A stretch of 63,725 bases of DNA, counting the filler, from Dugesia japonica (taxonomy: Eukaryota), in assembly GCA_001938525.1 (NCBI GenBank). It is 5 parts of 5 records of this genome, joined end to end, with 100 filler letters (N's around TTAATTAATTAA, not from the genome) between each part and the next. Parts side by side here need not be neighbours in the genome. Positions count along the whole stretch, not along the records: positions 1 to 14,987 come from MQRL01511549.1; 4 more parts are not named here. The stretch is one strand, 5' to 3'. Every line of letters starts with the position of its first letter. The first letter of the stretch is position 1. Positions 4,480 through 55,360 of the stretch are shown here, piece by piece. The notes beneath the pieces are model-generated. The model saw only the letters and a list, made by a program, of their open reading frames with translations. It searched no databases and was not told the DNA's origin. The position numbers and the translations under genes were made by a program.

Positions 4480-4985
4480 GAAGATTTTCACGGTAGAAAA
4501 TTTACTCTAAAAACTAATCATAAACCCCTTACTTCCATTGCTTTACAAGAATGCCTTTTGGAATAGCTGCAGCACTTGAAACGTTTTATTAATAATTATC
4601 AAAAGTATTATGAAGATATATTAATATTTTTAGAATATCAGATTATCAGTGCAAGATTTTAAAAGAATTCAAGAATCAGGATTGAGAATTATACCGCAAA
4701 AAAGCTAGCATAAGTCAAATATTTGGGACATGCCACAAACGAGAATGACGTTTTTACTGATTCAACAAACATTGAATGGATAAAATAATTTCGCAAGACC
4801 TAAATGTATGAAGAACTTAAAAAGCTTTTTTGGGAATATTCAATTAGTATAGGTGATTTATCAATAAAAACTCAAAGAAAGCTATAAGTGTGAAAGATAT
4901 ATGTGAAAGGATAATAAAAAACTTATGTGGTCTAAAATATATAAAAGCTTTTAATGAGATGACAGAATCATTAACAAAAGCACCG
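4480..4985 (+). mobile_element. Highly degraded Ty3/Gypsy pol (RT/RNase H) fragment
   Basis: Motif remnants TNHKPL, FTRMPFGIAAALETF and FWGIFN*YR*FI in plus frames. Confidence 0.55.
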
Positions 4986-6299
4986 ATATCGAAATTCCGA
5001 GATATTATAGGTTTCAATATTGCTGCAATTTGTTTGCCTATAATACTGTATTTCCAATCCACATTTTTAACTCCGGATATAGTATTAGTAATACTTGATG
5101 CATCCTTTTTTCCGTTGATAGTTCTAATAGTTCACAATTCTCCATGATCTCTTATGATACTGCTACTAATTGTTCGTTTTGTGTCGGCTTTTGACGTGTT
5201 GCTCCTTTTGTCGTCATAGATCCTCTTGGTCGTCCATGCGCCTTTCGTTCCGTCTCTACACCGACTAATATTTTTTTATATATTTTGTGATCTGTTGTTT
5301 CTTCTTGATTATCCGTAGTTTCGATTGAATTATCTGTTGTCGTTATTTCCTCTTCAAATTCTACTGATAGACCTGTATTTTATTCTCCAAATTCGTATTC
5401 TGATGTAATTAGCGTACTTGCGTTTTGCTCGAATTCCATTAATGACGATGATTTTTGTTTTGCTCCTTCTGGTATTCTGGGTGGTGACCATATTTCGTCA
5501 TTAATATCATAGTATACTTCTCTAGGATTGAACTTATCTTTCATTGTCTTCTCCTTTTTCACTGGTTTTATTGTCATTGTTGCTGGTTCAAAATGAGTTA
5601 TTTGTATCTTTTCATCCTCTTCGCTTGATAATCCAAATAATTGTTCCATAATATCATATTTTTTGTCGTAATTTCTCTAGAGATTGTATGTCCTTTTGGC
5701 TTCGCTGATATATGGTGGTTCGTACGGTATTCTCTCCTTTATATCTCCAATTGTTTCGTATGCTAGACTGGCTATCTTAGTTTCGTATCCTTTCGGATCT
5801 ATTATTTGAAGGCGCTATTGTCGAGGTTCAATTTCACGTGTTTTTAGATCTCGCCATTTTTTAATGATTGCTCTGAACTGTATTGGCCTCCTCTCACACT
5901 CTTCCTTAAATCGTAATATTTTAAATGCCAGGTCTCTTAGTTCGTTTATTGGTAAATTACTTTTTAGAATCTGTTTTGCTTATTCTTGAACTTGGTCCCT
6001 TGAAATATTCGTTTCATTAATTCACTGTTTCTGATGCATAGTTGTTTGTTTTCTTTGTATATCTCATCATTGCTAACCTTTCTACCCATCTGTATAACTC
6101 CTGATTCAATCGGTATTGACGACTCAATGCTTGTCATGACCGTAACATTGTCACTTCTTCCGTAAAATCGAAATCTAATTCCTCAGGGTGTATTTGTAAT
6201 TCCCATGGCACTATCGGGTTCATATTCTCCACAAAATACTGCATCGTTTTCTGAAATAAACTTTCTCTTATTCGGGTATACGGATTTATGTCTCCATCT

Positions 6300-8890
6300 C
6301 CAGATGCAAATACGTATATATTCATCATTTGATCTGACCATATTCCTGACAATTTGATTGCATCACGGTCAAGATCTTCTGTGATTACCTTACCGCAATA
6401 GATTACAATATCTTCTCTTTTTACTTTTGAAATATTTTCTTTGTCTATTAACGATTCTTTATTCACATACTTTAATATCTGTTTTATCAATTTCTCCCAT
6501 GTTGTCATCATTTTTACTTCAAATTCTTTACTTGACTCGTCTGGAAAGTGAGCTGTCACTTTCACTACTTGTCTTGGCGTCTGTGCCTGCAATAAGACTA
6601 TTGCTGTTACTACTTCATTGAAATGTTCCCCACATATTAAGCCTAGTTGATTCATTCGATCTATTACCTCTATTGTTTCTCTACTTTTAATATAATTTTA
6701 ATTATTTAGTATTATTAGCCCAATTTTGCTACATTCTATTTCCACGATTTCCACGGTTCCACTTCATTTCCCACAGTTATTGTAAATTATATTTGATCAT
6801 CATATACTAATTTCAGATAATCCATTTTATCTATTTTCTCTTGATATACTTTTTTCATATTTGTGCTCATTCTACTAACTGAAATTATCAACACTTCTCA
6901 GTTGTCCGTCATCATATTCTATTGTTAATTCTGTTATCTCACCAGGTCTTAACCTGAACTCAATTAAGTGCATATCTCGATTATTCAATTTATCTCGTTC
7001 AATTATCATGTTATCAAATATAATTCTATATCTTTCCAATCCACGTTCTAGCGGTAATTCACTAAAAATATCTTTTAATTCACCGACTGTTAACGTCTTG
7101 AGTTTTTTAATTATTTTTGTTTGCATCGTTATCACTAATTTTCGTCTATAGTCGGATAATTGATTTTAACACCAACATCTGCTCCTACTGTTTCCTTTAA
7201 TACCTCGCCCTTGTACATATCGATTAACTCTGGGTGCTTACTGCGTTTTCCTCCCCTCATTAGCTGATAATAATGTTCATCCCATTATTCTCCAGTACGA
7301 CTGTTTCGGGATTCCGTCTTTACGAAATAGGGTTTCTTTGATATAATTTTCTATCGTTAACACATTCTGATAGTATTCGTGATCTGAATTATCGTCTGTT
7401 GATATTGGTGGTTCGCTAAACTCATCGATACTTATAGCAGTCATACTTGTTGGTTGTTTCAGGTTCTTTTTATTTCTACTCAATAATTTGTTTGATATTG
7501 ATCTTATCATAAATAATCTTCCTTGACTCGTACCAGGTTTGTTGTCTTCTGTTTTTGATTCTATAATTTGATCCTGTTGTTTTTGGAGTTTCAGATGTTT
7601 AATAAGCGGAACAATGTAACTCATGTAACATTCATCCAATGATTTCAAAATTTCCTCGGTTGCTCGAAAATCTAAGTGCGACCATAATTTTTCTTTATCT
7701 TTACACACTCGTTCTTTGTCAGTCACTCTGACTTTTAGTTCTCATCCTGGTTTGACTCAATAAGTATATGCATGCTCATTAACATCACCTTGATCTACAA
7801 TCATTGTTGGAGTATGTATTATATATTCCGTTATCGGTTTCGGCCACTCTAATTTCGATAAAGCTTCCAGTAGATCTCGGACTGTTAATCCTTTGATTTT
7901 CACGACTCATAGACGATGGTATTTTGTCATTTCTTGTAAGTTCGTTGAATTCCACATCTTTTCGCTTATTAGTACTGGCTTGATTGATTCTCCAACCCAG
8001 ATAAAATAATCCTTGCTTTTGATTACTTTATTACCTCAGCTTTGTATTCCTCGATTAGCGGCTTTCCTTTCTCTTTCGTTGTAATATCCATATGACCTGG
8101 ATCCGTTAACTCTACCAAATGATTCATTGTCATCCCATAACGTCGCCTGTTTAATTTATTTTTTAAATTCCGTGTTATTGCGAATATGTTTTTGATAGCT
8201 TTTGTCGAATCATTTACATCTTTGATCGGCGCTATAGGTTCCTTGATAGCTCGTTTTACCTTTTGTAAGACTTCGATTGTCTCGATTTCTTCTTTGATTG
8301 TATTATCTACATCATCTTCAGTCTCAGATATATCTTTAGTTTTCATCATATTTACTTGTGTGATTAACCGTTGATTGCTTCTTGGAGCTTTTATTTCTGT
8401 TCCCGTCATCATCAGTTTTATCTCTTTTATGCAGTTTTCTATTTTTTATTAATGATAACTGATTCTTTTGTGGGTAAAATGGTTGGTTTGAAATTGAATT
8501 GATTGGAAAAGTGCAAATTTTTGTATTTGTTGTAATTGATTCTCGTATTTCATTAGTATATCGATGTAACTTTCTTTTAAATGAATTTATAATTTCTTCC
8601 AAAGTTCAAAATTGTAAGTATTGCCACACTGGTTGTTTTCTTTTATAAACTTCCGGTAAATTCAAGACTTGTATTATCTCTTTACGTCCAGGCCTGATTC
8701 CATAGTTAGTTATAGGAGCATCGACATCGTCCTGTTCAATTACTCTCGTCTTTGAACATATTACATAGTTGTCTAATGGCTCTTCTAATACTTGTTCGTT
8801 TTTAATAGCACAAAATAGTCCTCCCATCGTATTGTTTTGCAAGGTGACCTGACATGGTGCTATTTTTTTGTCTGATTCTTTGAAATGTTT
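6300..8890 (-). pseudogene. Array of ~5 divergent ubiquitin-like (beta-grasp) domains in the element A polyprotein
   Basis: Repeated TxxxL...YxI...I(E/D)...Yx(I/V/L)(R/K)PG units at ~8660-8890, 7725-7900 and 6900-7170. Also TIENYIKETLFRKDGIP at ~7300-7365, and VKVTAHFP...FEV...IVIYCGKVITED...LSGI at 6310-6570. Confidence 0.6.
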
Positions 8891-9439
8891 AGTTTTTTGT
8901 ATATCGTAACTATAAAATCGTCTGGCTTTGTTTGCTCTCTCATTTCGTTTTCGTATTCCCAGATCATTGGCTGCATTCCTCCCTGATAGTTGGGTTTAGA
9001 TGGCTACATTCCATTAGTTCCATAACGTGATTCATTTATTTCCTATAAGTCTTTCTGTTGATCATGCATTTGAATACTTGTATTAATTTGAGTTTATATT
9101 CTACCAGTCGTTTTACCGATGTTTGTTCACTCTTTGCGATCTTTACTTCCGTTTCATTGACTGTTCGCATCATATTCACTCGACCTCATCTCATCTGCGC
9201 AACCCGCTTGTTCCTGTTTGAGTTTATCATATACTCGTCGTTAAGTTGCTTCATGTTTGTGCATTTCTTGTTGCATCATGTTAACTCGCTGTTGACTCTG
9301 CTTCTGGTTATTCTGTAATTGTGGTCGTAAGCTATTATTTTGTTGTATCCTATTTTCGATTGCTTGATTATTTGATTTGTTATTGAAGACTTGGCTATTA
9401 TTTCCATATCCACTTCCTCTCGTATTTCTGAAGCAATTT

Positions 9440-10500
9440 CTGTTACAAGTATAAAATACAATGGGTTTTGATGTATAATATTGATCTGCTGTTTTTCCTG
9501 TTCTCTGGCATAATTTACAAGTTGATGGCACTAAATGACATTCTCTGGCTATATGTCCATATTGCCCACAGTTAAAGAAGTTTTGATTACTCGCTGGTTG
9601 CCAATTATTTGGTCTATTGCCACCTTCTCCTCTTGAGTTATTTAGTTGTCTTCTGTTGTCGGAACGATTCGGTCACGGAGTCAATGATTTTAGCAAAGGT
9701 TGCGTATTTGCTGGTATTGAATTCGTTATCTTCGGGACCTTCTTTTCTCCTGAGTCTTGCTCCTCAATTTTAAAGATACTAGCTAGTTTCTGCGTAGCTT
9801 CTACTTTTTGTGATACTCTGGCTACGTTTATAGCTTGTTCCACCGTTTCTGGTTGCATTAAATTAACCCGCTTTCGCACTTCTGAGTTTCTTAGACCTTT
9901 AATAAATATTCCAAGAATTACTTTATCTTGCACCTCGTCTCCGAGGGCTAGTTTTCCGAGTTTCTACAATTCTATTACAAAAGCTGGAAAAGATTCATCA
10001 TTCATCTGTCGTCTAGCTGAAAAATCTTGGACTTCCTGTCCTTGTAATGTCAATAGTTTGAAGTTGTCTTCTAAGATCTTTTTAGCATCCTTCCATGTTT
10101 TTACACCATCGTTGACTAGTTTTGCTTTATTTCAGTATATCGTTTTTGCTGATCCTTTTAAATATAATGGTAATTGCTAGACTGCTCTCTGCTCACTCTA
10201 TCTGCACGCTTTTCTATGAATTTCGTATGCGGCTATGAAATTATCTAATTTCTCCGGGTTGCCCGAATAATGTTCTTCATTGAACTCTGTTTTCCATACT
10301 GATTCAAGTTTAACTTTAGTTCCACTTAGGCTGTCGTCCTCCGGTTTCTCAATAGGGCTAATCATTGTGTCTTGGTTATCCGTTTCATTTCCTGACATAA
10401 TTGATTCGTCACTAGATTCTAGACTGTTACTTTTACACGTGTTCAATTGACTTGATGGTCGATAGATTTTTTCCACACTGGTATGTTCAGATCTCACTGT
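9440..10500 (-). pseudogene. Gag capsid core and zinc knuckles of giant element A (disrupted by stops)
   Basis: ORF-track pieces 10198-10497, 9673-9933 and 9241-9531 join through in-frame stops. The knuckle at 9538-9583 reads FFNCGQYGHIAREC. Confidence 0.8.
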
Positions 10501-11499
10501 CAGGGCTTGTCCTTCCTGAATTCGATTGGCTCAACAATATTATACTGTAATTGCATTTTGGATCGCCGATTGGATTTGAATCTGATTCGCTAGTTTTGTA
10601 TGTTTCTGTTAAGTTATCTGTAGATCTTGTTGGAGTTGATGGAGTTCCTGGTTCTGTTAAGAATTATTGATTGTATGGTTTCTTGCTTTGTGGATTGAAC
10701 GATGCTGTTTTACTTTTCTTTTCCAAATGAATATGATTTCTTGTCTTTTGTCTAATTTCGTAGATTGTATCTGTCTGCTGAACTCGCAGTGATGAATTAG
10801 TTTTCGATCGTTTGATTTATTGAATAATATGAAAGTAAAATATGATAGCCTCCTGGCTTCTAAATTCTAGATCACTTCTTTTTTCATGTATCATTAGTTC
10901 TTATTAGTAGTTTGTTTAATATTAATACACATGCGCTTTATTATTATTTATTATTCATATACTTTTTATTATTTATTATTATATTACGCAATTTATTAAT
11001 TTTTTAATTCCTATACTTTGTTAGTTCACACAGTTCACATTTTTGCACACCTTTAATTAGTCATATATATCATATTGCACACATTATCATTGTAGGTTCA
11101 TTTTACGCCCAACTTATCTACCAATTTATTTCGTTTAATTCATTAAGTTTTACCCGCGATTTGACTTTCATCTATACTCGATTTTATTTCTCTTTAATTG
11201 TCATACCGTATTTTATTTTCATTTCTACTTTGGCCATACTTATCCCATCGTCAATTCACATTAATACACATTAATATCTTTATTCCAAAATTTCTACAAT
11301 CTTTCCTGATTGCTGCTCTGCATTTTCTAATTCTTGTTTCTCTTCTCACGATGTATATTATTTAAATTTTATTCCTCAATTTTTCCAATATCCTATATCA
11401 TGAGTTCATACTTAACTATAATTATTTTATAAATTTCGTCATTATTACGGTAAAATCTCCTTTAACATTATTCCTTAAGTCTTTTTGCAATCGGTAGGC

Positions 11500-12740
11500 C
11501 ATTTCAATTCAGCTCCGATTATTATTTCCATACTTCAATATATTTAAGTGACCAATAGTCTATTCTTTCAGCTTCGGTTATCTTTAAATCACGAGGTTCC
11601 TATTTCAGGAGTAGCTGGTAGTCTATTTCGATTCGGCTTCAGGCTCTCCAACTAATGTGTCAATTCTCTCTAAACTGCATTTTTTAGAGTAGCTGTGAGT
11701 CTATTTTCTTTTGGTTCAGCTCCAATCTACTCTTTAATGTGAAGCATCTCAGTAAAATGTGAAATTTCACTGATTTGTATTTTCCGTGCTGCTCGGACGT
11801 GAGATTATAGAGAAAACTCTTCGGGGTTTCCAACTCTTGCTAAACTGATTCCAATTTTGGTAACCAATGTACCTTCTAGTCAACACTGAAATACAATAAT
11901 CACAAGTTTCTCCGAATCTATTTTGGCTGATTCTACCATGACTCATTTCACCTTATCAAATAAAATTCTGTAGGGCTATGAGCAGATAGCTGTAGAGAAT
12001 GGATTTCAAGGCGAATCCACGCCAACCGAACTGCCGTAGATGGTCAACCTATCATTTACGGATGCCTAACTTTGCCGACACCCTCATTGATTTCTTGTGA
12101 ATCGTGACTTATCTTCTCTAGATAAATCTTGTATTGTGATTCTTTCGTCCTGAGAACTATCCACAGTAGTTAGTTCCCGAGAGCAGTACTCTTTATCCAC
12201 AGCCATGAAGCTCGAAGACAGTCTCAAGCATATCTCCAGAAGATATTCTTTCACTACAATTACTTCGAAGATTTCTTACCATTAGTCAATAATAACGTCC
12301 TCTTTCTTGGTCATTAGACAATCATTAGGGCTATCCTCTTGGAAGTTGATCAAGCTTCGGATTCTAGCTTACTGATTGCCAGCCCTATTTTCCAAAATTG
12401 ATCCTATTATCACGACACCTTTTCCTAGGGTACTTTCACATATCTATGATTACTTCGAGTCTTCTTTCCAACTCAAGGTTTTCTTTCAAAACAATTTCTA
12501 ATATCTCGATACTCTGGCAAATCCCGAGCTCATAATTTGTAACTCTAAAACCTTCGATTAATACAAAATAATAAGTATTCTCGTGAGTGGTTCCTGCTGG
12601 ACACCACAGTAATAAAACTTCCTGCAATACTATCGTCCCCTTCTCCATTCCTTTTTCGATTAAGATTTCGATATTACCTCGCATGGGTCTACCTGTGTTG
12701 ACTGTCCCGATACCCATCCCGCACTTCTTGATAAGTATAG
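11500..12740 (-). ncRNA. Conserved structured 5' leader of giant element A (paralogous to 16560-17710)
   Basis: Colinear non-coding similarity with element B, with no shared open frame and compensatory stem changes (TGGATT-tcaaggcg-AATCCA vs GTGAGTG-tcaaggcg-CACTCAC). Confidence 0.6.
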
Positions 12741-14987
12741 CTTTTAGTTAATCATGTTGCAGATTACTCCTTGAATCTACAATAATTCAGTCGTTAATAC
12801 GTTTGGTTACTTTTGATTGATTCATCTACTCGTCATAATTCCAATTATTATCTCCTTCATCGTTTAAATTTCTCAATTAATTCTAGTATTTATGTTTGCG
12901 ACCCTTACCCAACTTAGTCAATTTATTTCATTAATTTTTTATAATTTCCATATCATTTAACCATTCATATCGTTTTAATTTTTCTCCACATTATTCCTTT
13001 AATTTCTTCGCAATAATTATTCGTTTATCTCTAAAACTCCTTAAAAAATATCTCTCTTTATTCTTATTAATTCATTTTAACACTTTCCGCATCATTTTAA
13101 TAATATTTATCTAATAATCTCGATTCAATATATTTAATTCATGTCATACTTATCTTCAATTGAGTAAAAATTAGATTTGCATATTTTAAGGTTTTTATGT
13201 TGAATTAACTTTCCATGGGAGTAATTAAAATTTTAACTAACAGTGTTATTTACCGAATAGAATATGGAAATATTTTAATTTTAATTAACTATACTAAACT
13301 ATAATAGTTTAAACTATATTTTATTTTAAAACATTAACTGTTTCTAAAATATCAGAATATTTTATACTTTTAAAATTAGAATTTAATAATTTAATTTATT
13401 TTATTATTATAAAAGCAAATTTGTTTTGCTAGTCCATTTTAATCTAACCCCTCGCAGCTATTATTAAACTGTGTGGCAAAACATTCATTTTACTGATTTC
13501 AAATTAGAATCGTGGCAAACATGTAAGTCTATTTTTACTATTTATAAAAATTAATTAATTGTTTTTTTGTGTTCATTTAGGAACCTAGCACAAACTTAAA
13601 CCAACGGAGGCTTTGAATTATTGAACATCGATCTACAGTGTATGCATTAACTTTAGTTACACAAAGTTGATACAAGGCCATCAAACCATTCAGAATGTAT
13701 ACGGAATCATAATCCTGATGTCACTTGCATAAAATACAAATCCGATGTTTTATATGCTCTATGGTTTGATAGGAAATACTTGGAAGATAATATGAATCGA
13801 TTGTAAGTGAGAAATAGTGTATTGTTTTGATTTAATTTCAGGATTACTGATTTACACTTAGCAAAATTAATCCAGTTGTTTCTGAATCGGAATCTGTTAT
13901 TCCCAGCTATATTTCTGTTGAAGATGGAAATGGAGAAGATATTGATTATGAATTATGTATTTTATTAAATACTTATTGAATAATTAGTAACGTTACTATT
14001 GAGAACTAAATTAATTTCCTGCTATTAATTATTTATGCAAAGTTTAATTAGATTTGTGATGTTTTGAAAATAAGCTGATGAATTAATTTTGAAATATTTT
14101 TAATATGACTCAAATTGTTTATTTTACATTTCAGATTATTTTCATAAATCTTTTTTAAAAGCTATTTTTATTATTAAGAAAGTTTAAATATTCCACCATA
14201 AGCAATAAAAACAGAAAAAAAATTTTACATAAAAATATATTTCCAAATTGAATTAGATAATTCAGTACGTATTGAAAGATTAGAAAAATGGCATCAAATA
14301 AAGACCACACAATTGGAAATAATAAAGGTAATTCTGGAATAATTCACGATTATTTTTATCCTTTTAAAATACAACGCGAGGTAATTTTTAACTTTAATGA
14401 TAATCTTTATTGACTTGCTAGAAGTTTCTATTTATATGTAATCATGTAAATACAACATGCTTGGTGTCTAAATTTGTTGTTTGATATTTTCAAGATATAC
14501 TTATTAATGAATATTTCGTCATATTCATGTTATTAAATAACTTTAAATAAATTTACAAAAGGTTTAGTTCTAAAATAATTAGTACTTATCTTAGCGGTTA
14601 ATTTTTAAATAAGTTAAACTTTGTCAAATAATAATTTGGAAATATTTATTATGAAAAGTTATTTATAATTTTTATTTTAATGATAATCTTTATTTATTTG
14701 CTGATGTTTAATAGGGCAAATTTAATGTAAAATACTTCGATGAGAAGATCTTTGATGATAAACTACTTATGTCATTTAGATTGCAACTGTTGTTTTTATT
14801 CTATTTGCTTTGTTTGGTGCTTATTTGAATAAATAACATAATAAATAAATAAAAATAGATAAATCATTTCTAAATATCACTTACTCCACAGTGTGCACTC
14901 ATCAAACCTCGGGTAATTGTCATGTCAGTTAAATAATACCCCCGAACTATTTGTGTTAGCTCAGCTCATTATATTAATAATCGAAAC

Positions 14988-15087
14988 NNNNNNNNNNNNN
15001 NNNNNNNNNNNNNNNNNNNNNNNNNNNNNNNTTAATTAATTAANNNNNNNNNNNNNNNNNNNNNNNNNNNNNNNNNNNNNNNNNNNN
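14988..15087. other. Artificial scaffold-joining linker (44 N + TTAATTAATTAA + 44 N)
   Basis: Exact 100-bp pattern with a six-frame stop core, repeated four times in the window. Confidence 0.97.
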
Positions 15088-16559
15088 TTTTAATTGATTT
15101 TTGTAATGTGTTACTTATGATTTTAATTTGGATTTAAAGTCAAATAATATGAATAATGTATACATTTTAATTTAAATTATTAGTTAATTAATTTTAAACT
15201 TGTAATAAATCTTGTTTAAATTCATAGTTTGCAATATATGTAAACTTTTCAAATTTCAAATTTAATTTTACAAATAAAAAATATAGACTACGTTTTAAAA
15301 TATGTGTAAATTTTCTTTTAGTTACTTAAAATTTTAATAAATTTATATAAAAATTGAATAATTATACTAAGTTCCTTAAGCTTTCTTCGATTTCATTGGA
15401 TTTTCACCAACCATCCAACTTGACCAATAACAAGAATTATGCTCCAGATTTTAAGAATTATATGAAAAATGTNNNNNNNNNNNNNNNNNNNNNNNNNNNN
15501 NNNNNNNNNNNNNNNNNNNNNNNNNNNNNNNNNNNNNNNAAAAATGTATACTTATGGAATGACCACTTATTTTACACTTTGTTCTTTCGGATTTTACCAG
15601 TCTAATATAAAGTTTGGCGCTTTAAAATGATGATATCCAGAATCAGTAAACATTTCTCTATCTTATAGATCCTTTGATGTTCAAATTTCACTGACTTTTT
15701 ATTTTTTCAAAATTTGATGGTTTATCATTAGAGACTATAATTATACATGAGGGCAACCCATAATTAATACTTGTTTTTAATTTATTTCATTAATAATACA
15801 GTTTGATGATTTTTATCCGTATTAATATTGATATTTGAAATATTTTCAATTACTGCATTCTCCTCGTGGTCTTTTTCTTTATAAGTGGTTGACATGGTAT
15901 CAGTATCACTTGATTCCGAACTTTATTCCGAGTATTTTCGATTTCTACTTGACGCTCTTGTCGTAGATATACTATCATTAACTGATTTAGATTTGTATAA
16001 ACTTTCTAGATCAAGGTCTTCTAACAAATTGGCTATTGAGTGGTTTGGTTCGGTTATGGTGTCGAATTCTCTTTGTATTTCGTCGTTAGACGGAAACGAA
16101 CTGGGTGATTCGGATGCTGAAATTGATAAAAATTGATTGAAGTGTCGAGACGGCCTGTTTTATTATTATTTAGGCTGAATTGGATCATTTATTTACAAAA
16201 GACCTTCTATGTTCGGTACTTTCTCTAAAATTGTATTGGGGTTCCTGATTATCTATGATTGTTAATTTGATTGGCTCGTATATTGATTGGTGTATCTCGA
16301 ATTTTGGAACATTGAAATATATTTTGTTTTGGTTTCTGAAAATAAATAAGATGGCCCTACGGCTTCTGCACACATTCAAATATTATTATCGCATTCATTA
16401 ATTAACCACTTTTACAAAGTATCCAGAACAACTTGCTGGTAATCAACTCACAACTGCAATATTTACTACAATGTCTTACGTTCATATTTCGATATTTTTT
16501 TTCAAAATAACTTATAATCGTTTCTTCCAACAGTTTATTTGCTTTGAACCCTCTCTTTA

Positions 16560-17710
16560 TGTAGCCTGTAATCTTTTATTTCAGCTTTAGTTGGGCGACA
16601 ATTTCGATACTCAATTTTCAATAATACTTCAATATCTCAATGCTTGAGTCAGTTGACAGTCTATTTTGATTCAGCTCCAACCGCTCGCTAGTATGAAGGT
16701 TCTCAGTCAGAATCCTATGATCCAGCTGATGTGTAACTACGACGCTACCCGCAATCGCAATACAAAAATAATTTTCCAAAAATAAACAACACTACTGATG
16801 CCACACTTGGGCTAACTATAGTACCACCTTGTCAAAACTGAGTTCTCTGATCGCAAGATACCATGGACAATATGCGGCCTTGTCCTACCGGGATTTACCA
16901 CCCTAAAATCTAAAGCTCTGTAGAGCTACGGGTAGTTAGCTGTATGGAGTGAGTGTCAAGGCGCACTCACGCCAACCGAACGCCATATGTGGTCAGCTTA
17001 ATCAATGCCATGCTCATTGCCGGCTCCTTCGTTTATTCTCCGGGAATTCTTGAGTTTATCTCGCTTGGACTAAACTTCATTCTTCTGGCGTTGAAGTCAG
17101 ACAAAGTATCCAACTTCTGAGATCAGTACTCCTTATTCGAAGCGTTGAAGCTCGAAGTCCGACCCAGCATATCCACGGAAGATCTTCCAGTCCAATAACT
17201 ACTTGGAAGATTCCATTCTTTAGGTCAATAACAATTTCAATCATTTCAGTTATTAGACGATCATTGCGGCTGTTCCTTCAAAGTTGATCAGGCTTCTAGT
17301 TTCAGCTTACTAATTTCAGACCCTATTTTCCCAAATTACATCTACCATTATGACATCTTTTTCTCAGTTGCTTTCAGATATCCATCGTTACGCTCGAAAT
17401 TGTCTCTCTTCAAATCACCATAATTAAAATTCTTCAACAACATTTAAATCTAAATTCCAAATAATTATCTCATATGAAACCCTCAATTAAATCACCAAAT
17501 AATACCAATAAACTCTCGAAAATTTAATTTCCAGTAATAGTAACTACTCGATTATTGTTTCATATGACTCCGTAACCATAGAACCCCACTGTTACACCTC
17601 ATCCTCATCTCCGTTCATTTGTCGATCGAATTCTTGGTTACCACTCACTTGGGTGACCTCCCTGTGTTGACTGTCCCGTTACCTATCCTGCACTTCTTGA
17701 TAAGGTATAA
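16560..17710 (-). ncRNA. Conserved structured 5' leader of giant element B
   Basis: Blocks shared with 11500-12740 in the same order: TCAAGGCG...CACGCCAACCGAAC, CAGTACTC, GAAGCTCGAAG, AAGTTGATCA.GCTTC, CCCTATTTTCC, CCTGTGTTGACTGTCCCG and GCACTTCTTGATAAG. Confidence 0.6.
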
Positions 17711-20352
17711 CAATTTATTCTCCAAATAAATTTCATTGATTAACTACATTAAAATACTCCAAATCATTTGTCGCCCCCTCTTCTCCGTAAATTATATTAG
17801 TTAATCGACAATCAAAATCATTCTCTCATCATTTTTAATCTCATAACTTTCAGTTTCCATTACTCCATTATCGGTGCCATATCATTACTACTCAAATTAT
17901 TCATTATTCATCAATAACAGTTTGCATCTCGTCAATTCAATTATTATTCAATTCCAATAAATTATATCGTCACAACATTAATTACTATTGTCAATTATTA
18001 TTCATCCTGAATTTAGGCTTCATTTATTAGCTCATCTCGTTTACTTTAATATTAATATTCATTCTGATTCATTCCCACATCCCGACAGGATACGTCTCGA
18101 TCCATTAATTTACTCCCCATACTCATTGTTTCACCTTCTCAATGGAGGTTCTAATCTCAATAATTATTACTCTTCTTTATTATTCTTTGATTTATAGTCA
18201 TTATCGCTTCTACTTTATGCTGAGCTGCTTCATTTACATTAAATCATATCTTTACTCATTTAGAATTTATAACTCGCCTCGTTAACTTTTATTTATTCAT
18301 TCATTGCTGCATATCAATTTCAACTACGCTTCTTTTACTATATTGTTACTGGTCATTGGTTTACCCACCCCAAAAACTCGCTTCTCGTTCCGATTTTCTG
18401 CTGCTAAATGTATGTTAAAATTTATTCAATACTTGCCTCATTACTAATACACTTCTAATGCTGCTCCTTTTTTTATGCTTAAATGTCAAATGTCTATTGA
18501 CTCACATCCAGTTTCTACTACTGTTGTTTTCATAGACAACTGACCTGTGCGTCAATCTGATTTTCTCCGCTTTTATCTAAAATCCCTGCCGATTACTCAA
18601 CAAATATTCCATGACCAGCTGCAGCAATTTGGTTCTGATGTTTCACACAAACTGCCCGGCCTGATCATTGTTTACTTGTTGATTCATTTAATACGTGATG
18701 CTCGAAGTGAGGCCTTCCGAATGAGAAGAGTTGCGAGATACATCTTCTAATCTCACAACTATGCTCATTTGAAACCACTCTATTATAATTTCATCATTAT
18801 TTGTTTATTTATTATACTTTATTTAGTTTAATATTTATACCCTCGTTAGATGCTCCTTACCACATAATCCGGAGATGCAGTGCATGTGAGTCCCATTTCT
18901 CTCTCACACACTTCACTTCCAAATCTTTTGGTACATTCATTTTCCTACACATTTGTTTATGAATTACTCATAAGATGTTTAATATAAGTCTATCTCGATA
19001 CTTGGTGTGTGCAAGTTCTCATGACCCACTCTCACCCGCCAAGCATTTGAAACACCGTCTGATTTTTATCATTATCTCATTTCATAATTAAGTTAACTGC
19101 TGTTTGATATAAATTATGCTCGCTGTCACATGAAAGATAAGCAGCTTGTAAATCTCACTCTATTTTTGGACGCTCATCATTATCTGTGCAGCATCCTTAC
19201 AGGACACACACAATAACTCGATGCCTGTGTCGAATCGTAATACAAAAATTTTGCCGCAACTATTTAACTCACTTTATAGCCTCGTTTAAACTCAACTTTT
19301 AATCTTTCACTTCACCTCTCATTACTCGAATTTATCGCTACTCTTTACACAAAATCTTAACCATGCTTTGCCTGTATCTTATTATGTTCCTATTCTCTGT
19401 GTGCATTATAATTGTCTTATATCATTGTTCTTTTAAATGCGTGCTATGTTCTTTACTCTCTGCCTATCTGTATCAACTAATAATACGTGCTAACTAACTC
19501 AATACTTATGTTGTACTTATATTCTACTGTAATAATTATTATTTATTGGTTGATTTTAAATTATCTATAATTATTCAAATAAAATAAGATAATAAAATAT
19601 TATATCCAATTATCCAAAATTCTACCTTGTTTTAAATATGTAATTTACATCGAATTTAAATTATCTAAATAATATTACTAATATATATTAATAAAAATAT
19701 AAAGTATCCGAGTATTACCAGTGCTAAAATCATTATGCCAATATAAATAAAATCAGTACCAAGCTCATCAACAAAAGTTCATTTTTAATTTAGCTGCTTA
19801 TCAAACTGTACTCAATCTTTATTGAAATACTTTTATAAAAAATCGTTTACTAAAAATTATTTACGAAATTTATTTACTGAAATTTATAAATGAACATTAT
19901 AATAATAAATAAATTATTAATTATACTGCGCATGTTAAAAAAGTACATTAATAAAATATTAATGCGCAAAGTAAAGAATATTAATCAAATTATCAATCTT
20001 ACATGATTCGAGTGCCATTTTCATCGACAAAATAACTGCATAATTTTTAAAACTTATCTGCATATTTGGAACATAATTTTATTATTCAATGCTATTCAAT
20101 TACAAATATATTCGATTTTACAAATATGCATATCCCAATTAGATTTTTCCGCGGCCATTTTCCGAATGTAATTCGCACTTTGCATTTTCATTCATTTACA
20201 ACATTAGTTCTACTCGTTTCGTTAAAATTATCATAATTGTGCTATCTTTGTAGTGGCATTACTGAAAATTACGTTTAACTGGATAACAAGATTTAATAAT
20301 TAGTTTTCTGAAAATTAATAGTGTATGAAAGAGATTTAGATCGATTGCGTAG

Positions 20353-20370
20353 TTCTCGGCTGAGCCCCCA
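20353..20370 (-). promoter_or_regulatory. Primer-binding site, tRNA-Pro-like
   Basis: The minus strand reads TGGGGGCTCAGCCGAGAA, compared with the canonical tRNA-Pro PBS TGGGGGCTCGTCCGGGAT. It lies 7 nt downstream of an LTR-type ...AACA end. Confidence 0.65.
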
Positions 20371-20725
20371 AACCACTTGTTGGGTTTTTAGGATTTTTAT
20401 TTTTAACTTAAAAATTCTATTCACTCTCATTCACCTCCAATAAATTTTCACCTAGTCTAGGGGCAACCTAAAAACCTCAAGCGTGTGCATCACCTCTGTG
20501 ATGTGCTCCTCTCTTTCCTATGGTTCAACGCAACTGTGCGGTATCGCATCGTATTTGCAGGAAAACTGAACCCCACAGTAATGAATCTCTTTTTGCTCAG
20601 TATTAGTTTATCTTATTTCTATAATTTCATCCTTATCAAATATCATTTAGTGAACATACAACAAAAACAAATTGAGAACAATCCATTTTCAATTAACCAC
20701 ATTTATTTAAATTGATAATATGTGC

Positions 20726-21100
20726 TCATTTGGTATCCAAATCCACGGTCGTGTTCATGGCTTCTGTGGATGGCGGCGGTTCTCGGTAATTCATCCACAA
20801 GGTTCGTAGCGTCAGGAGCATCGCACTCTCCCGATCAGCATACGTTTTAATTACATCAACCATGAGGCGATAAACGTGCTGAAGGGACAATTCGTTTTCT
20901 TTTAACTGGTTGTACTTCCCCGTAGCCTTTATAACTTGCCCCTTCAGTTGATGGATCTCATTCCACATATCTCGCCACTCCTCTGACAATTTGTTTCTTT
21001 CTCCAGCAACATCCACATACAAGTACCCGAACTCGTCGATATACGCGCTCAAATCTTCCTTAGATTCATCTCGGCTCTCATTATGATTTGGTTCCTGCAT
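20726..21100 (-). CDS. Intact 124-aa coiled-coil ORF or terminal exon inside the LTR of element B, function unknown
   Basis: GC-richer open frame preceded by an acceptor ttgattacag| and followed by AATAAA ~20 nt after the stop. Heptad-like segment LSEEWRDMWNEIHQLKGQVIKATGKYNQLKE. Confidence 0.5.
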   Translation of the reverse strand: MQEPNHNESRDESKEDLSAYIDEFGYLYVDVAGERNKLSEEWRDMWNEIHQLKGQVIKATGKYNQLKENELSLQHVYRLMVDVIKTYADRESAMLLTLRTLWMNYREPPPSTEAMNTTVDLDTK

Positions 21101-21709
21101 CTGTAATCAATCAATTAAGGTCATTCAACTCCATAAACTAATGCAACAAAAATAGTTTTTTTAAACGATTCTTCGGCCTGGAAACTATCTTTTCCTCTCC
21201 ACCGCTTCATTACGCAAACCAGAGAAGACGGTCACTATTTGCAAGCATCTTTTCTCGTTTTCATCATCTTCAAGACTCCTCTACATGATTAATTGAAATT
21301 TTCTCCCTATACTAACAGCATAACAAAATATGGATTTACTGAGCTACGATAATACTAAGATTTTTATTAAACTGACTTTGAAATATTAGCTACTACAAAT
21401 CAACTTGAATATATCTAAGTCCCAATAATTGATCCATAATACGGACGTTAATAAAACGACATTCTTAAAGGTTTCACTATAACGAAAATCTATAGTTTCA
21501 CTTTCCAGACTGCCAAAAATATAATCCACAGCAAGCTAATTTGATTCATGTAGAATTCAAACTGAGGACTTACTAGTATGGATATTAATAACTTTAATAC
21601 GAAAAGAAAAACTCAACAATAACTAAAAGTTACTGCTGAAAGTTCCTCCAATCGAAAAAAAATTTGATTTGTTAATATAAATTGTTACTAAAGTTTCATG
21701 AAAAATCAA

Positions 21710-21813
21710 AACAAATTTCACTATGACGAGAAAATATAATTAACAAATTTCACTATGACGAGAAAATATAATTAACAAATTTCACTATGACGAGAAAATA
21801 TAATTAACAAATT
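21710..21813. repeat. 32-bp tandem repeat, ~3.2 perfect copies
   Basis: Unit aacaaatttcactatgacgagaaaatataatt at 21710, 21742 and 21774. Confidence 0.95.
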
Positions 21814-22354
21814 CTTTAATTGATATAATTTATTTTACGAAAAATTTAAAATTAAATAAAAGAAAACTAAAATAAAAGTAACCATAACGAAACGAGCATA
21901 ACTTATTTGTAAAATCTGCAAACTCATAGTTATCCGACTCCACATGACTGACTGAGCTCTTCTATCTGTTCCTCTTTAGAACATTCGCATAATCTCTGCT
22001 AAATTATAGTCAAATCCACCTTTTATTTCCTTAAGAGCTTATCATTATCAGCATATTTAGCATATATCAGTATATCTCTCATATATATCTATCATCTAAC
22101 AGTCACCTCACTTGTGTCTATTACACTCACATCTTTACCACCTTTCGCTTATTTCGTCCAGATTTTTCAAGAGCTCGGTCATTAATACGGAGGCAATTTC
22201 TTGGAATGGCACTCGATTACGGTAACTATTAACAATAAAAAATGAAAAAAAGTTTTACTTCGCTTGTGTTTTTCCTTTTTTTTCAATTGTCCAATCTGAT
22301 TTATCCACAAGTATTGCGCTTCTGCTTCAATAATTAACCTCTGCTCCAATGACT

Positions 22355-22515
22355 ACCTTTAGGAATTTTTAAAATAAACTTCTCTTTTGAATTAATTCAC
22401 CTTTAAGAATTTTAAAAATAAACTTCTCTATTGAAATAATTCACCTTTAAGAATTTTTAAAATAATTTTCTCTATTGCAATAATTCACCTTTAAGAATTT
22501 TTAAAATAAACTTCT
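22355..22515. repeat. 44-bp tandem repeat, ~3.7 copies
   Basis: Unit acctttaagaatttttaaaataaacttctctattgaaataattc at 22355, 22399, 22443 and 22487. Confidence 0.9.
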
Positions 22516-23220
22516 GCTTATTTTTCAAGTGCAATCTTTTTTATTCGATTTTTTATAGTTTCCCATTAGCCGGCCAATCACCTGCAATTTTCACTCAATC
22601 TGGGTAGATGATTAGTGCAGTTTGTGTGCCGTCTTCTCTTCTTATTGTGTCATCATAATTTGTGCACACCAACTTTTGCCCTATATTTTATTTCTCAGTC
22701 ACCTCGTGTGACCTTTGTGATGAATCGGCTAGTTGTTAGGCCAAAACCTTGTCTAGCACGGAATGATTCAGCTAATCTACTGATTATTTTTGTGTTATTT
22801 TTCATCAGCTAGACAAAGACTAATGACTGGACCAGTCGTAATTATAATAATTAAATAATATCAAATGGATAACATCCATTAATATAATAAATATAACAGG
22901 TCGTAGAGACCTTTCTAATATAATATTATAAAATTTTAGTTTTTTTTTTATTATTACGTTCTTCTTTCCCTTTCTACTTATATTATTTTCAGTTTTGTAA
23001 CATAAGATTTGGGTCTTTCCTGCCCAATTTTTCATTTTCGATATGTAATAATATTCTCATAACATTTATAATAATAATAATTACATAATAATAATAACAA
23101 TAATAATTATAACGATTCTCTTGAAAATATTTCTGGCCCAGTTCATCAATTTCGTGTCTATTATTTCCCATTCTATCCATTTTCACTATTCTCTATTTCT
23201 TCTTTATCTCGAGTAATTTT

Positions 23221-23320
23221 NNNNNNNNNNNNNNNNNNNNNNNNNNNNNNNNNNNNNNNNNNNNTTAATTAATTAANNNNNNNNNNNNNNNNNNNNNNNN
23301 NNNNNNNNNNNNNNNNNNNN
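23221..23320. other. Artificial scaffold-joining linker
   Basis: N run + TTAATTAATTAA + N run, 100 bp. Confidence 0.95.
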
Positions 23321-23337
23321 TAATAATAATAATAATC

Positions 23338-23377
<40 letters not shown>

Positions 23378-23390
23378 TAATAATAATAAT
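23321..23390. repeat. (TAA)n microsatellite
   Basis: Direct reading. Confidence 0.95.
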
Positions 23391-36478: not shown

Positions 36479-39400
36479 TTGGGGATTGCTGGGATGTCAA
36501 CGCCGAAGCTTGATGGACGAATTGAGGATGGAAACGGATTGGTACAGTTGGGCTCGATGCTAAAACCGGTGATCGCCTGGCTTACAGACACACTGGACGG
36601 CGCCGCCCAAGTACCGAAAACAAGTAAATATTTTTCGCGCACTTTGCGCAAACTTAGTAAAAATTTTAGTAATTTTCTCTTTAACTCTTCAAGTAATATT
36701 TTGAGTAACAATTTTTGTAATATTTCCTTAAACAACTTTAATAATATTTATTCGAATAAGAGTTTGTTATTCTCAATTTTTCTTGAAAACGTTTACAATT
36801 TTGCCATTGAATGCTGCCTCGCGGAACCAATTACCCTTAAGAAATGCGCAATGATTCTTTTTGGGGATATTAACTTTATTATCAATTTTTGTGATGATGA
36901 TGTTAAACTTGTGGATAAGCAGCAGGGAATAAGGGGGCAAAATTCATCTCTTTTTTCGGAAAAAGGCGATAAAGAACAGAATTTGGCAGAAAATAAGAGT
37001 GAACAAGAAAAACGAACACACATTGCATATACTTGCCACAATCATCGCAAATATAGGGAACACACAAAAAAATGTAAATCTCCAAAGAAATGTACCTTTT
37101 CTAAGACGGTTAATGAAAAATACACACAATCTAAGGAGGTTTTCAAGACAAATAGGGAAATTTTAGTTCAGGATAGTAAGACCTTGGAAAGTAGAACAAA
37201 TAAAAAGGATGAAACACAGAATGAAAAACGAGATATTGTAGTTAAGGTTAAAGTGGAACATGCAGGTAACAACAACACAACATACAAGGACGCACTTAAT
37301 AAAACATCGAAAACGAATCGAAGACGAATCCCGATTTAAAAAGGTCAACTTCCAAAAAATAACAAACATCCATCTAAACAACATTAAAGATCAGGATGCT
37401 CCTTTAGCAAATGTTCTTCTTCATAACCATAGGGAATTCACCGTTTATTTAGACAGTCCACATAGTAACCCACAGAATAAAAGAATAATGATCATTGATA
37501 AGTACTTGAAATGCTTAAACGTTCTCTCTGCAAATATCAATGATTACGAAAAAATCACGGATAACTTTAGCTCGCGTATTAAATTTTCTGCGGCTAAAAT
37601 AGGAGAGTCTAGTGACATTATAACAAAAATAAGCTGACTAGCTGAGAAACCAGGCACCATGCCAAAGCATAACAAAACAGGCAATACTCATAGCTTTAAG
37701 ACCAAACCAATTTCAAAAAATAAATTGTAAAACATTGCATCTGAAATAAGCTTTAGAATATCTAGGGTCTGCAATAAACTCGCAAAAATAGCCACCATTA
37801 AATTAAACACTTTGCATACCTCACTGCTCTGTGTTTGAAAAAAGGAATCGAAAGACATAAAAATATGTTTGGATTTCAGACAATTGAATGTAGTAACGAA
37901 AAGACAAGCCTTTCCTATGCCTAATGTCGATGAAATGCTGGACAAGTTAGATGGAGCCAAATATTTTAGTTCAATAGATTTGGAAAATATATACAGAGCA
38001 GGTAGAGCTCGAAGAAGAATCTCAAGAAAAAATAGCGTTTTCAACCAAGCACGGACAATATTGTTTTAATAGAATGTCATTTGGCATCGAGGCGGAACAG
38101 GTGGCATTTCAGGAGATGATGACAAAAGTTGTAGGCATAATCAATGGAGCCATGTTTTATCTTGATGACATTTTGATATGAAAAACAATAAAGATCAACA
38201 CTATGAATTCATTGAAAAATTATTGACGGAAAAAATGAAGGCTGGTCTAAGAATTAATCCGGAAAAGGGTCAGTTTCTTCAAAGCGAAATCAAGTTTCTT
38301 GGACACATAATTAGCAGGGATGGTGATCCATCTAAAATAAAAGCAATAAGAACATTTGGCAAATCTAACTGTGTGAAGAAGTTACGAAGTTTCTTGGGAA
38401 TTTGTAATTGTAAGTAAATATTTTAGACAGTTAAATTTTTTGATAGTTCGACCGAAGTTGTTAACGAAAATAGTTTGATAAATAATTAATTAACTTCATG
38501 TAATAAAGTTAGAAAATTTAATTGAAAATATTTTTTGATTATAAAATTTTGTAAATTGAATTATTTTCAAAAATTTAATGAAGAATATTTTTGCTAAACA
38601 TTAAATTTTGTAAGATGAATTATTTTCTAAAATTTAAGTAAGAATATTTTTAAATAATTTCCGTCAGAATTAAATAAAAATGTTAGCTTGTTTAAAAAAT
38701 TTGTAAAAAAACAAATTGAGAGTGAGTTTTTTTGTTGTCATTAAATAAATCTTAGAATGAAAAGTGTTCAATTTTTAAATGAAAAGATGAATGGTACAGA
38801 TTCATCTAACAGTAATTATTACAGAAAGTTTATAGAAAACTACTCAAGAAAATCAAATATATTAGTGCAGTTGTGTAGCGGACCAAGCCACAAGAAATTA
38901 GAATGAACAGATGGAATAAACGATACTTTTGAAGGTCTAAAAAAATCTCTAATGACTGCACCAATATTGTGTTTTCCGGACATAAACAAAGAATTTATAT
39001 TAGATACATGTGCCAGTTTTGATATAATTGGAGCAGTATTGTCACAGAGAGATAAAGAAGTAAGAGAAAGAGCTGTTGCCTATGGATCACACTCAATGAC
39101 GAGTCATGAAAAGGGATACTGCATTACACGAAAAGAGTTATTGGCTGNNNNNNNNNNNNNNNNNNNNNNNNNNNNNNNNNNNNNNNNNNNNNNNNNNNNN
39201 TTATAAAGCTCTAACTTTCATGATGACGACAAAGAAACCAATTACGTCACAATTCCAGACATGGATTAATTATCGGAGCAGTTTAGATATGGTTTTGGAA
39301 TATAGAAAACGAATTCAACATGATAATGCAGATATATTATCTAGACCAAGATGTGAGGTATGTGTACAGTGTCAAATTTCATATGAAGATGCCAAGAAAT

Positions 39401-39930
39401 GGAAGATTAAAACGAGAATACGGAGTCAATTGAAAAGGAAAAAGAAGATCACTTAAACATTTCCAAGGAAACAGATTTGATCAAGAAAATGGAAATTACG
39501 GATAACAAACTACGTGAAAAACTAGAAGAAATACATAAATTATTCTGTCATGCAGGAGTTGAAAAGGTGTACCAATATATGAGAAACAAATATATTGCAA
39601 AGAATTTGTGGAGCCAAATACAGAAGTTAGTTCGTAGTTGTGGAAATTTTCAGAAGACCAAAGTAGTGACAATAGCAACTAAAGAGAAGACAAACAGTTT
39701 AGAAGCTACCAATTTATTTGAAGTGATATTCACAGACATATGTGGGCCAATGCGGGAAACAAGTGGACGGAAAATACATTCTTGGAATAATTGACCAGTA
39801 CAGTAAATATCTGGTTTCTGTACAATTGCCTAGACAAGATTGTGAAATAATTCAAAAGCTATTTTTGAAAAGTGGGTATTAAGATTTGGATGTCCGAAAG
39901 AGATAAGACTAGATTGTGGAAATCTTTTGA
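36479..39930 (+). mobile_element. Decayed Ty3/Gypsy element(s): gag with CHCC motif, RT, RNase H and integrase N-terminus
   Basis: Gag PKLDGRIED..WL and TCHNHRKYREHTKKCKSPKKCTF. RT CLDFRQLN..AFPMPNVDEMLDKL..YFSSIDL, MSFG and FYLDDIL. RNase H FILDTCAS..IGAVLSQ..YCITRKELLA..NADILSR. Integrase HKLFCHAG..VRSCGNFQ..FTDICGP. Confidence 0.9.
38409..38811. mobile_element. Solo LTR (403 bp, TG...CA) inserted in Gypsy pol, 5-bp TSD GTAAT
   Basis: GTAAT at 38404-38408 and 38812-38816. Removing the insert restores FLGICNYYRKFIENYS. Confidence 0.85.
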
Positions 39931-42302: not shown

Positions 42303-43410
42303 TTATTTTAAATTATGGTTTTCAGCCTGAATGCTTAAATGATTTAATTTAGACGCATTTGAACCAGGGAGAACAGATGCGATTTGAACATCAGTTTTCT
42401 TGGATCTATCAGAACCTGCATGATGATCAGATCTAGATCTTTTTGCCGGCGTAGATGAACTTGTGGACGGCGGTGTATTATTCAAATTTCCCTGATTTGA
42501 AGATTCTGAGTAGGACTTAGCCGTTTTTGGATCAGAATATAGATCAAGAATTTGATGACAAATATCTTCCATAACCTAACTAATATTATTTGAAATAATA
42601 TTTGGAAAATTTTACTTCAATAGTCATTCCTTCAACAAAACTTTCCCACCACTTTTGGCCAACCTGTTGATTGTCCCAACTTTCTATTTCTTGTTTATTT
42701 AATTTTGTAGCTAAATATAAAACAGCACAAGCTACAATCTCTGGCTCCCATTTTAAACATAAATTAGTTCTCAAACTATCATTAATAAATGTCCATGACA
42801 TCTGAACAAGTCTCTCGACATTTGTTTGTTTACCTTGATCTATATAATTACGTTTAAATATAACATAATACCTTTAATTTTTTGAACATAGTTCAACAGG
42901 TATTTGTAAGGATGAGAGACTTGTAAATCGAATTTTATGGTTTTCAGTAAAATTCTTTCCATCGTCATAATTTCTTCCTAATAATATTTGAAATTTTATT
43001 AGTGTAATAAAAGCAATGCCTTAGGATCACTTCCAAATTCGTTAAAATGTTTTTTATCTAAAATAGATTTTGTCATTGTTACTATGTCTCGACATTTCTT
43101 AGGAGTTTCTTCAACTTTACCGGCCAAAAACAAGCAACATGAGGCTGTCAACTAAAACTGAAAGTCGTTTATTATAATTTAATATGCTTACAAATCTTGG
43201 CATAGTTTTAAAAGAATGAAACATATAGAATCTGTGAAAATATACCATAGCTGTAGCACATGTATCATATTTTAGGCCCAGCTTATTACCAAGTTCACTA
43301 ATGAAAGTTGCTCCTTCATTACGATACTTATCTTCAATTCGAGGATCAATTCCGTCCGTTAAAGATGGTGTATTCCTCAATTCTTCTTTTTCAAAGTACC
43401 AACATGGCAT
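42303..43410 (-). CDS. CCNK: Cyclin K, 5 exons (43410-43192, 43151-43020, 42977-42872, 42839-42616, 42575-42303), 317 aa
   Basis: The spliced product reads [16 protein letters not shown]...[15 protein letters not shown]|[22 protein letters not shown]...DPK|[24 protein letters not shown]...[22 protein letters not shown]...|[13 protein letters not shown]. These are diagnostic cyclin K motifs, and the frame is preserved across all junctions. Confidence 0.95.
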
Positions 43411-44181
43411 AGACTTTTAAAAATCATTATTAATATTTTATACTAATAAAATCAAAACTACATGTTCATCCATTATTCAAAACCAAAGCCAATATATTAA
43501 ATTAAACAAATAAATAATTTTAAACAATTTAATTTTAGTTTGAAAATTTCAGTACGATAAAAATTTCAGTGCTAAAACAATATTTATACAAAATGAAAAC
43601 TTTGACTTTTAAAGTTATAATAATGACTAAAGATATTTTTTTTGACAAAACTAAATTAAAATAAATTTTTTAATCAAATCAAAATGGTAATAAAACCTAC
43701 ACATAAAATCTAATTTATTAAATTAATTTGATGAAATATTTTGGTAAAATAAGAACAGCCATTAAGTAGTATTGCTCGATTTTAAATGTAAAGCATCTTT
43801 TGGTTTTTTCATTTAAATTTATTAAATATTTATTTTGTCATATTTTCTCTTAAAATGTTGAAACTACAAATAATACAATTAGAACTGTGCTTTATCGATA
43901 AATTAAATATATGATATATATGTTTGAAATAGTTTAAAGAAGTTTTATATTTTACAAGCAAAGTTGAATCGGGTTAATTGCATAGNCTCAGGTCCATTTC
44001 AAGAATGTGAAGTTAGCCTGAATGGCAATTAAAATATATTTAAGTTTAATTAAAATATACTTCAATAAGCAACGTGTGAATAATAATGTAAACTTTTTAT
44101 TAAATCTAAACTTTACATAAATTTTTAAAAACATGCTAACTGATTTTAAAAAATCAACAAGTGAAATTAAACAGTAAGATT

Positions 44182-55260: not shown

Positions 55261-55360
55261 NNNNNNNNNNNNNNNNNNNNNNNNNNNNNNNNNNNNNNNN
55301 NNNNTTAATTAATTAANNNNNNNNNNNNNNNNNNNNNNNNNNNNNNNNNNNNNNNNNNNN
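55261..55360. other. Artificial scaffold-joining linker
   Basis: 44 N + TTAATTAATTAA + 44 N. Confidence 0.97.

Follow-up and report, generated by a model that had tools for sequence, protein, structure and literature searches.

Among LTR retrotransposons, cis-acting RNA structure has been mapped mostly in yeast Ty1 and Ty3. In Ty1, a pseudoknot in the 5' part of the RNA is reported to be needed for reverse transcription and to be a main Gag-binding site (PMC3681743, PMC4974528), though it could not be shown to have a role in packaging (PMC4974528). This pseudoknot of a yeast Ty1/copia element is a long-range structure, joining nt 1-7 with nt 264-270, and has been tested with mutants (PMC3681743, PMC4974528). 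SHAPE-predicted pseudoknots have been described for Ty3, which belongs to the same superfamily as the element considered here; these are located within GAG and POL, are called 'potential' by the authors, and none of those in the available part of the account is in a long non-coding leader (PMC11381356). A compact H-type motif, CPK-1, has been presented as a general scaffold that is not tied to frameshifting (PMC3835772). The planarian Burro elements have a giant ORF1 consisting of gag, CCHC knuckles and then many non-pol domains, and the portion of the Burro/GYPSM1 description available to us does not mention leader RNA structure (PMC6431247).

The window analyzed here is a stretch of 63,725 nucleotides from Dugesia japonica (assembly GCA_001938525.1), made of five parts joined with filler letters. 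It is AT-rich (28% GC) with N gaps, and it contains two copies, A and B, of a short motif, which lie on different contigs (N runs 14988-15087 and 15473-15539). The same 12-nt all-frame stop linker stands between N runs at 15032-15043, 23265-23276, 35212-35223 and 55305-55316; it is an assembly spacer, not biology. The features of the motif are the following:

Positions 12000..12019 (A) and 16950-16969 (B), no strand assigned: covarying 6-bp stem with an invariant 8-nt loop, the directly supported part.
Positions 12018..12031 (A) and 16968-16981 (B), no strand assigned: 14-nt run identical in A and B in the alignment.
Positions 12001..12023, minus strand: predicted compact H-type pseudoknot of copy A (sequence, pair counts, energy estimate).
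Positions 16951..16973, minus strand: predicted pseudoknot of copy B (sequence, pair counts, energy estimate).

The loop TCAAGGCG is identical in both copies and begins at 12006 (A) and 16956 (B); CGCCAACCGAAC begins at 12020 and 16970. The original prediction had quoted one string for each copy and had claimed three compensatory swaps around an invariant loop. Both strings lie where it had placed them, and the swaps are borne out pair by pair. The six positions at which the stem copies differ make up three Watson-Crick swaps around the identical loop: G-C at 12002/12017 in A is A-T at 16952/16967 in B, A-T at 12003/12016 is G-C at 16953/16966, and T-A at 12005/12014 is G-C at 16955/16964. Within 60 nt, this stem is the only all-Watson-Crick helix of at least 5 bp kept in A and B in the 1206-column global alignment. 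A helix of at least 6 bp with three double changes was found in 0/150 column shuffles that preserved the conservation pattern; with G-U allowed on either strand, 16/150 shuffles reached the same criterion. The within-pair shuffle control of the stem (64/500) cannot be significant with two sequences, and the swaps amount to one independent comparison between two subfamilies. A descriptor of the compact pseudoknot, composed after the motif had been seen, matched only the A and B sites on both strands of the whole window, as against a mean of 0.13 matches in 30 dinucleotide shuffles. As judged from these sequences, the covarying stem is very probably under a pairing constraint.

Both stem types belong to high-depth, many-copy repeats in public sequencing runs. 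Run X1 yielded a contig of depth 5119 over 11961-12053 with one differing letter, the other contigs there having depths of 13-50. The B stem was covered by B-type contigs in three runs, with summed depths of 15,000-32,000 in X8 and X19 (the likeness threshold was 85%, a level at which the A stem should drop out). Contig depth is not equal to copy number and was used solely as a sign of a many-copy repeat. As both types occur at high depth, the swaps mark the divide between two lineages that have each been amplified, rather than errors private to this assembly. The window copies differ from most matching contigs at 12040 and 12066 and at 16933, 16945, 16988, 17003, 17004 and 17009. The contig tables list no difference within either stem; we do not deduce stem invariance from this, since clustered differences are dropped there, a contig with 13 differing letters over 11961-12031 having yielded only two table rows. 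At place 12025 in run X2, two contigs diverge by eye just past the S1 strand defined below, which suggests a third subfamily with S1 kept and most of the invariant linker changed.

The minus-strand parse originally proposed, with an S1 of 4 bp, an L1 of 1 nt, an S2 of 5 bp, an L2 of 0 and an L3 of 4 nt, is correct for both copies. In A, S1 would pair 12023-12020 with 12013-12010 and S2 12018-12014 with 12005-12001, L1 being 12019 and L3 12009-12006. In B, S1 would pair 16973-16970 with 16963-16960 and S2 16968-16964 with 16955-16951, with L1 at 16969 and L3 at 16959-16956. S1 is GGCG/CGCC with 4/4 pairs invariant, and 3/5 pairs of S2 are swapped. Since S1 is invariant throughout, covariation is silent on the knot itself, and the conservation of S1 is not specific because the loops and the upstream bases are just as invariant. 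Hence the stem is supported, and the pseudoknot is a prediction. Such a pattern, with variable stem bases next to a fixed S1, fixed loops and 7 fixed nt ahead of them, would fit a ligand reading the loops rather than the S2 bases.

Like the Ty1 structure, the present one would be a pseudoknot in the 5' portion of the RNA of an LTR retrotransposon, with a proposed role as a Gag-binding scaffold for reverse transcription (PMC3681743, PMC4974528). However, the present predicted knot has only 23 nt, belongs to an animal Ty3/gypsy-type element and lies more than 1 kb before gag. A search for Ty1-like long-range pairing gave no convincing long-range helix common to A and B. CPK-1 is similar in its L1 (1 nt here, 1-2 nt in CPK-1), and with a zero linker in both copies coaxial stacking is possible; it differs in its S2 of 6-7 bp as against 5 bp here, and no recoding site lies upstream of our motif (PMC3835772). 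S2 stays at 5 bp because a sixth pair would consume the sole L1 base. The predicted knot would therefore not be a strict CPK-1, being one pair short. Because pseudoknots are already known in LTR-retrotransposon RNA, what is new here is at most a variant, namely a compact knot, as predicted, that an animal element of Ty3/gypsy type carries in a long non-coding region. We found no published account of the motif in the LTR-retrotransposon and Burro literature that was surveyed, the original Burro description and its supplements lying outside this survey.

The surroundings of the motif contain the following features:

Positions 9244..10530, minus strand: decayed gag of element A (Retrotrans_gag E 3.1e-5, zf-CCHC, weak Ty3_capsid).
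Positions 4847..8995, minus strand: further broken frames in the same orientation as gag, about 4 kb.
Positions 11601..12760 (B 16577-17730), minus strand: non-coding region common to A and B (alignment, no codon periodicity).
Positions 12130..12250 (B 17070-17190), minus strand: second conserved structured domain (24 pairs, 5 double and 5 single wobble-type changes).
Positions 12689..12734 (B 17658-17703), no strand assigned: most conserved island (42/46 identical; runs of 18 and 14 nt).

The minus strand carries the gag of A at a distance of 1.2-1.5 kb, 3' of the copy A stem. Its five in-frame stops were read as X for the domain search, which gave gag domains with E-values of 3.1e-5, 5.2e-3 and 5.1e-4 and zf-CCHC at 1.3e-4. 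Element A thus has both a gag (Retrotrans_gag or Ty3 capsid) and a zinc knuckle, the combination by which we recognized Ty3/gypsy elements. The contig of B stops about 1 kb past the shared region, short of any gag. In the eight pieces scanned of the frames at 4847..8995 there was no match to a protease or reverse transcriptase (RT), and protein searches found no relatives. The best Atlas matches of frame 6137-6697 are to FERM F0, PI3K p85-binding and RA domains, at sub-threshold values of 0.76-0.83, and are a lead only; these domains have a ubiquitin-like fold in common. Another frame of the element had no Atlas match, and the predicted fold of 6878-7165 has low confidence (pLDDT 51). By its decayed gag the element is of Ty3/gypsy type; its Burro-like layout is a lead only. 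It resembles Burro/GYPSM1 in Retrotrans_gag, the CCHC knuckle, long non-pol frames, very high repeat depth and an AT-rich host, but this is a likeness by description and not by sequence, SUMO-like, MATH, BCL2, env, PR and RT being known from the Burro side (PMC6431247).

Several other sequences were recognized in the window. On the minus strand about 3 kb upstream of B lies an intact 126-codon frame of higher GC (20729-21106) with no Pfam match below E 0.05; perhaps it is an accessory component, either of this element or of a different one. Just upstream of it are perfect 32-nt and 44-nt tandem arrays (21710-21813, 22355-22515). A second LTR-retrotransposon remnant at 36452-39791 (plus; RT E 8e-6, integrase zinc domain E 5e-9) does not contain the motif. 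Broken frames at 30781-34087 (plus), 34207-34892 (minus) and 29258-29575 (minus) have Endonuclease_7 (E 1e-4) as their sole Pfam match; by eye they resemble a protein-primed polymerase of a polinton/adintovirus-like element. Pieces of a host cyclin T/K-like gene occupy 42306-43416 (minus; Cyclin_N E 4e-6, CycT2-like_C E 3e-8). A Sina TRAF-like domain (61892-62245, minus; E 7e-14) is found just downstream, on the opposite strand, of a zinc-knuckle frame (61068-61475, plus), and a degenerate satellite with a unit of about 51 nt at 26870-27912.

The region shared by A and B has an identity of 57% in the global alignment, and blastn extends over about 1.5 kb at 62%. A coding reading was rejected: codon periodicity is absent, and no reading frame in the 17 ungapped blocks has an excess of synonymous changes; from the latter the region is taken to be non-coding. 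It may be a leader, or the U5 part of a long LTR: as the LTR end and the primer-binding site were not found, what we call the leader could be U5. The window has no second LTR copy, and the contigs end at gaps. The island is a candidate for the LTR end, the primer-binding region or a splice donor. The second domain contains a 10-pair hairpin at 12153-12177 with four double and three wobble changes, which is more covariation than in the reported stem. Its computed fold is -17.65 on the minus and -7.75 on the plus strand, with z values of -3.6 and -3.2 on the minus and of +0.4 and -0.6 on the plus strand. By these calculations the second domain favors the minus strand, as expected of a folded sense-strand leader. 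The claim of a pseudoknot in the leader thus stands with respect to a constrained stem at a non-coding site 5' of a minus-strand gag; the knot in it remains at the level of a prediction.

The question of which strand folds was approached through geometry and through the flanks of the stem. On the plus strand, the GGCG/CGCC register would leave 0-1 nt to span a stem of 5-6 bp, which is unfeasible by established pseudoknot geometry. Hence this register can form on the minus strand only. The original prediction that the plus strand is sterically excluded is right for this register, but it overlooked another H-type register there: the loop can pair with downstream YGCC to give a feasible knot with an S1 of 6 bp, an L1 of 4 nt, an S2 of 4 bp and an L3 of 11-12 nt, at estimated energies of -7.0 (A) and -11.3 (B), similar to those of the minus knot. 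The 14-nt invariant run would accordingly be read as the S1 5' strand on the minus strand, or as loop L3 of the rival plus-strand knot. The three swaps are uninformative on strand, as all go from Watson-Crick to Watson-Crick. Two hairpins flank the stem on the plus strand:

Positions 11965..12000 (B 16915-16950), plus strand: flanking hairpin H1 (12 pairs, 1 double change, 3 G-U-keeping single changes).
Positions 12033..12044, plus strand: flanking hairpin H3 (4 pairs, 1 G-U-keeping change on plus).

In consensus folding, a cassette of 115 nt reached -24.5 kcal/mol on the plus and -19.95 kcal/mol on the minus strand; the plus fold is free of knots and consists of three tandem hairpins with 22 pairs, four double changes and four G-U-keeping single changes. 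The preference of H1 for the plus strand is not explained by the sense-strand model. On the minus strand, the H3 segment has an alternative pairing with the S1 5' strand, or closes an outer stem with 11992-11989, and G-U-keeping changes occur at the stem base and in this outer stem. The z values were -5.0 (plus) and -3.6 (minus) for 11955-12054, and -2.8 (plus) and -4.1 (minus) for 11995-12092. Over the whole 1.2 kb the minus strand folded at -99.1 (shuffles -66.7 +/- 8.4) and the plus strand at -68.5 (shuffles -42.8 +/- 7.4), so both strands outdo their own shuffles about equally. Thus the assignment to the minus strand agrees with the orientation of gag and with the second domain, whereas the flanking hairpins prefer plus. 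We consider folding on the sense (minus) strand probable, well short of certain.

Our preferred reading is that the leader of a giant, Burro-like retroelement is structured and contains a compact H-type pseudoknot with a likely role in packaging or reverse transcription. This reading is tentative, and we give it somewhat less than an even chance. A simpler view is that the sense RNA forms a plain hairpin of 6-7 bp with a sequence-specific loop, GGCG/CGCC being incidental or an alternative fold. Covariation is confined to S2, the hairpin gains one base pair on the minus strand that is G-U in one copy and G-C in the other, and RNAalifold places the S1 5' strand in a competing 7-bp upstream helix. 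In 20,000 post hoc randomizations beside the fixed stem, any Watson-Crick S1 of 4 bp arose by chance in 6.2%, but a feasible all-G-C one in 0.14%. Estimated from stacking energies and an assumed loop penalty, with folding that was not pseudoknot-aware, the knot has -8.6 (A) and -11.2 (B) kcal/mol, while those 25 nt reach -6.5 and -9.0 in their best nested fold, a local difference of about 2 kcal/mol in favor of the knot. In a context of 126 nt and with a stricter penalty, the knot plus the rest gave about -25.2 (A) and -31.5 (B) against a nested minimum of -25.4 and -33.0, so that by this model the knot would only tie or lose. We regard the plain hairpin as unlikely, and to a similar degree we doubt that the functional fold is that of the plus strand, in an antisense RNA or first-strand cDNA, comprising the three tandem hairpins and the H-type knot of loop GGCG with downstream YGCC. 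Apart from the pairs and the knot energy given above, the run differences at 12040, 12054 and 12058 keep an A-type hairpin (12034-12061) through G-U on plus and by eye are mismatches on minus, and antisense RNAs over the 5' region of Ty1 are described as controlling copy number (PMC3681743). Yet the orientation of gag and the second structured domain both indicate minus, G-U-keeping changes are also found there, and the plus-strand S2 has no double change, its knot having to open H3. Possibly, a cassette of about 100 nt is selected to fold on both strands: the genomic RNA would form a compact pseudoknot, and its complement, as antisense RNA or as first-strand cDNA, would form a separate array of hairpins or another pseudoknot; this we consider quite unlikely.

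The structure could instead control a splice acceptor, in which case the knot would lie near the acceptor, the invariant L3 would present the branch-point A, and the folded leader would be spliced from some transcripts. In A, a six-pyrimidine tract with NCAG does lie 10 nt 3' of the knot on the minus strand, the match at 11990 being the sole Y6-N-CAG on the minus strand of the 1.16-kb region, and removal of a leader would suit the 40 AUGs that separate the island from the first gag-like frame and make plain scanning unlikely. However, the pattern is absent from the B copy in the window (most B-type contigs differ from this copy at 16945), 29 AUGs would still follow the acceptor, and contigs presumed to be RNA (a guess for runs X4 and X5) pass the site unspliced and show no joint, contigs being prone to lose rare forms. 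We consider splice control very unlikely. Conservation at the DNA level, in which proteins bind motifs belonging to an internal promoter or enhancer and the pairing is coincidental, would account for TTGAC occurring five times against 2.3 expected and AGCT nine times against about four, both recurring in the two copies, and a DNA insulator is described within the gypsy 5' UTR (PMC3383448). But it leaves unexplained why six substitutions fall into three complementary pairs and why a second domain covaries, and we consider it extremely unlikely.

We arrived at the functional part of the preferred pseudoknot reading by excluding other roles and by taking Ty1 as an analogy. A stimulator of recoding (frameshift or readthrough) was rejected, since there is no conserved frame and no slippery heptamer XXXYYYZ, on plus or minus, in the 250 nt surrounding each copy. 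Rfam gave 0 matches at the gathering threshold, and at E up to 10 two and one chance matches, none of them over the motif. A self-cleaving ribozyme (hammerhead, HDV-like, twister, pistol, hatchet) was discarded for want of an Rfam match and of known core motifs common to both copies. A tRNA search found 0. A primer-binding site at TGGCG was dismissed because the following bases differ between the copies and by eye no LTR-type end precedes it. The loop is not palindromic and duplexes simply reuse the hairpin stems, which speaks against a self-complementary dimer loop. IRESs are present in some errantiviruses (PMC3383448), but an IRES knot abutting a start codon was rejected here, 29 AUGs intervening between the knot and the gag-like frame. 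A scan with the motif pattern had 0 matches in viral contigs and 0 in prokaryote genomes; the single metagenome match (L001) lies inside a bacterial protease-like frame with its stem halves unpaired and was set aside as chance.

With these roles set aside, RNA recognition within the particle is what is left for a folded module preceding gag. A possible mechanism is that S1 stacks on S2 without a linker, which would leave the 1-nt loop and the invariant 4-nt loop exposed. The knot predicted on the element's own RNA could then serve as a scaffold or Gag-binding site and, as one module of a folded leader, might act in particle assembly or in initiating reverse transcription.

If no more than the hairpin is confirmed, this would be an ordinary leader stem-loop. 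If the cassette does fold on both strands, a giant animal retroelement would possess a two-faced switch by which RNA copying is coupled to copy-number control. At 23 nt, a module that shows natural compensatory swaps and belongs to a many-copy animal element is small enough for direct probing, and its many natural copies are a ready covariation data set. Should the element prove to be Burro-like, the motif would provide a first handle on how the RNA of a very large retroelement with a long, AUG-rich leader is recognized.
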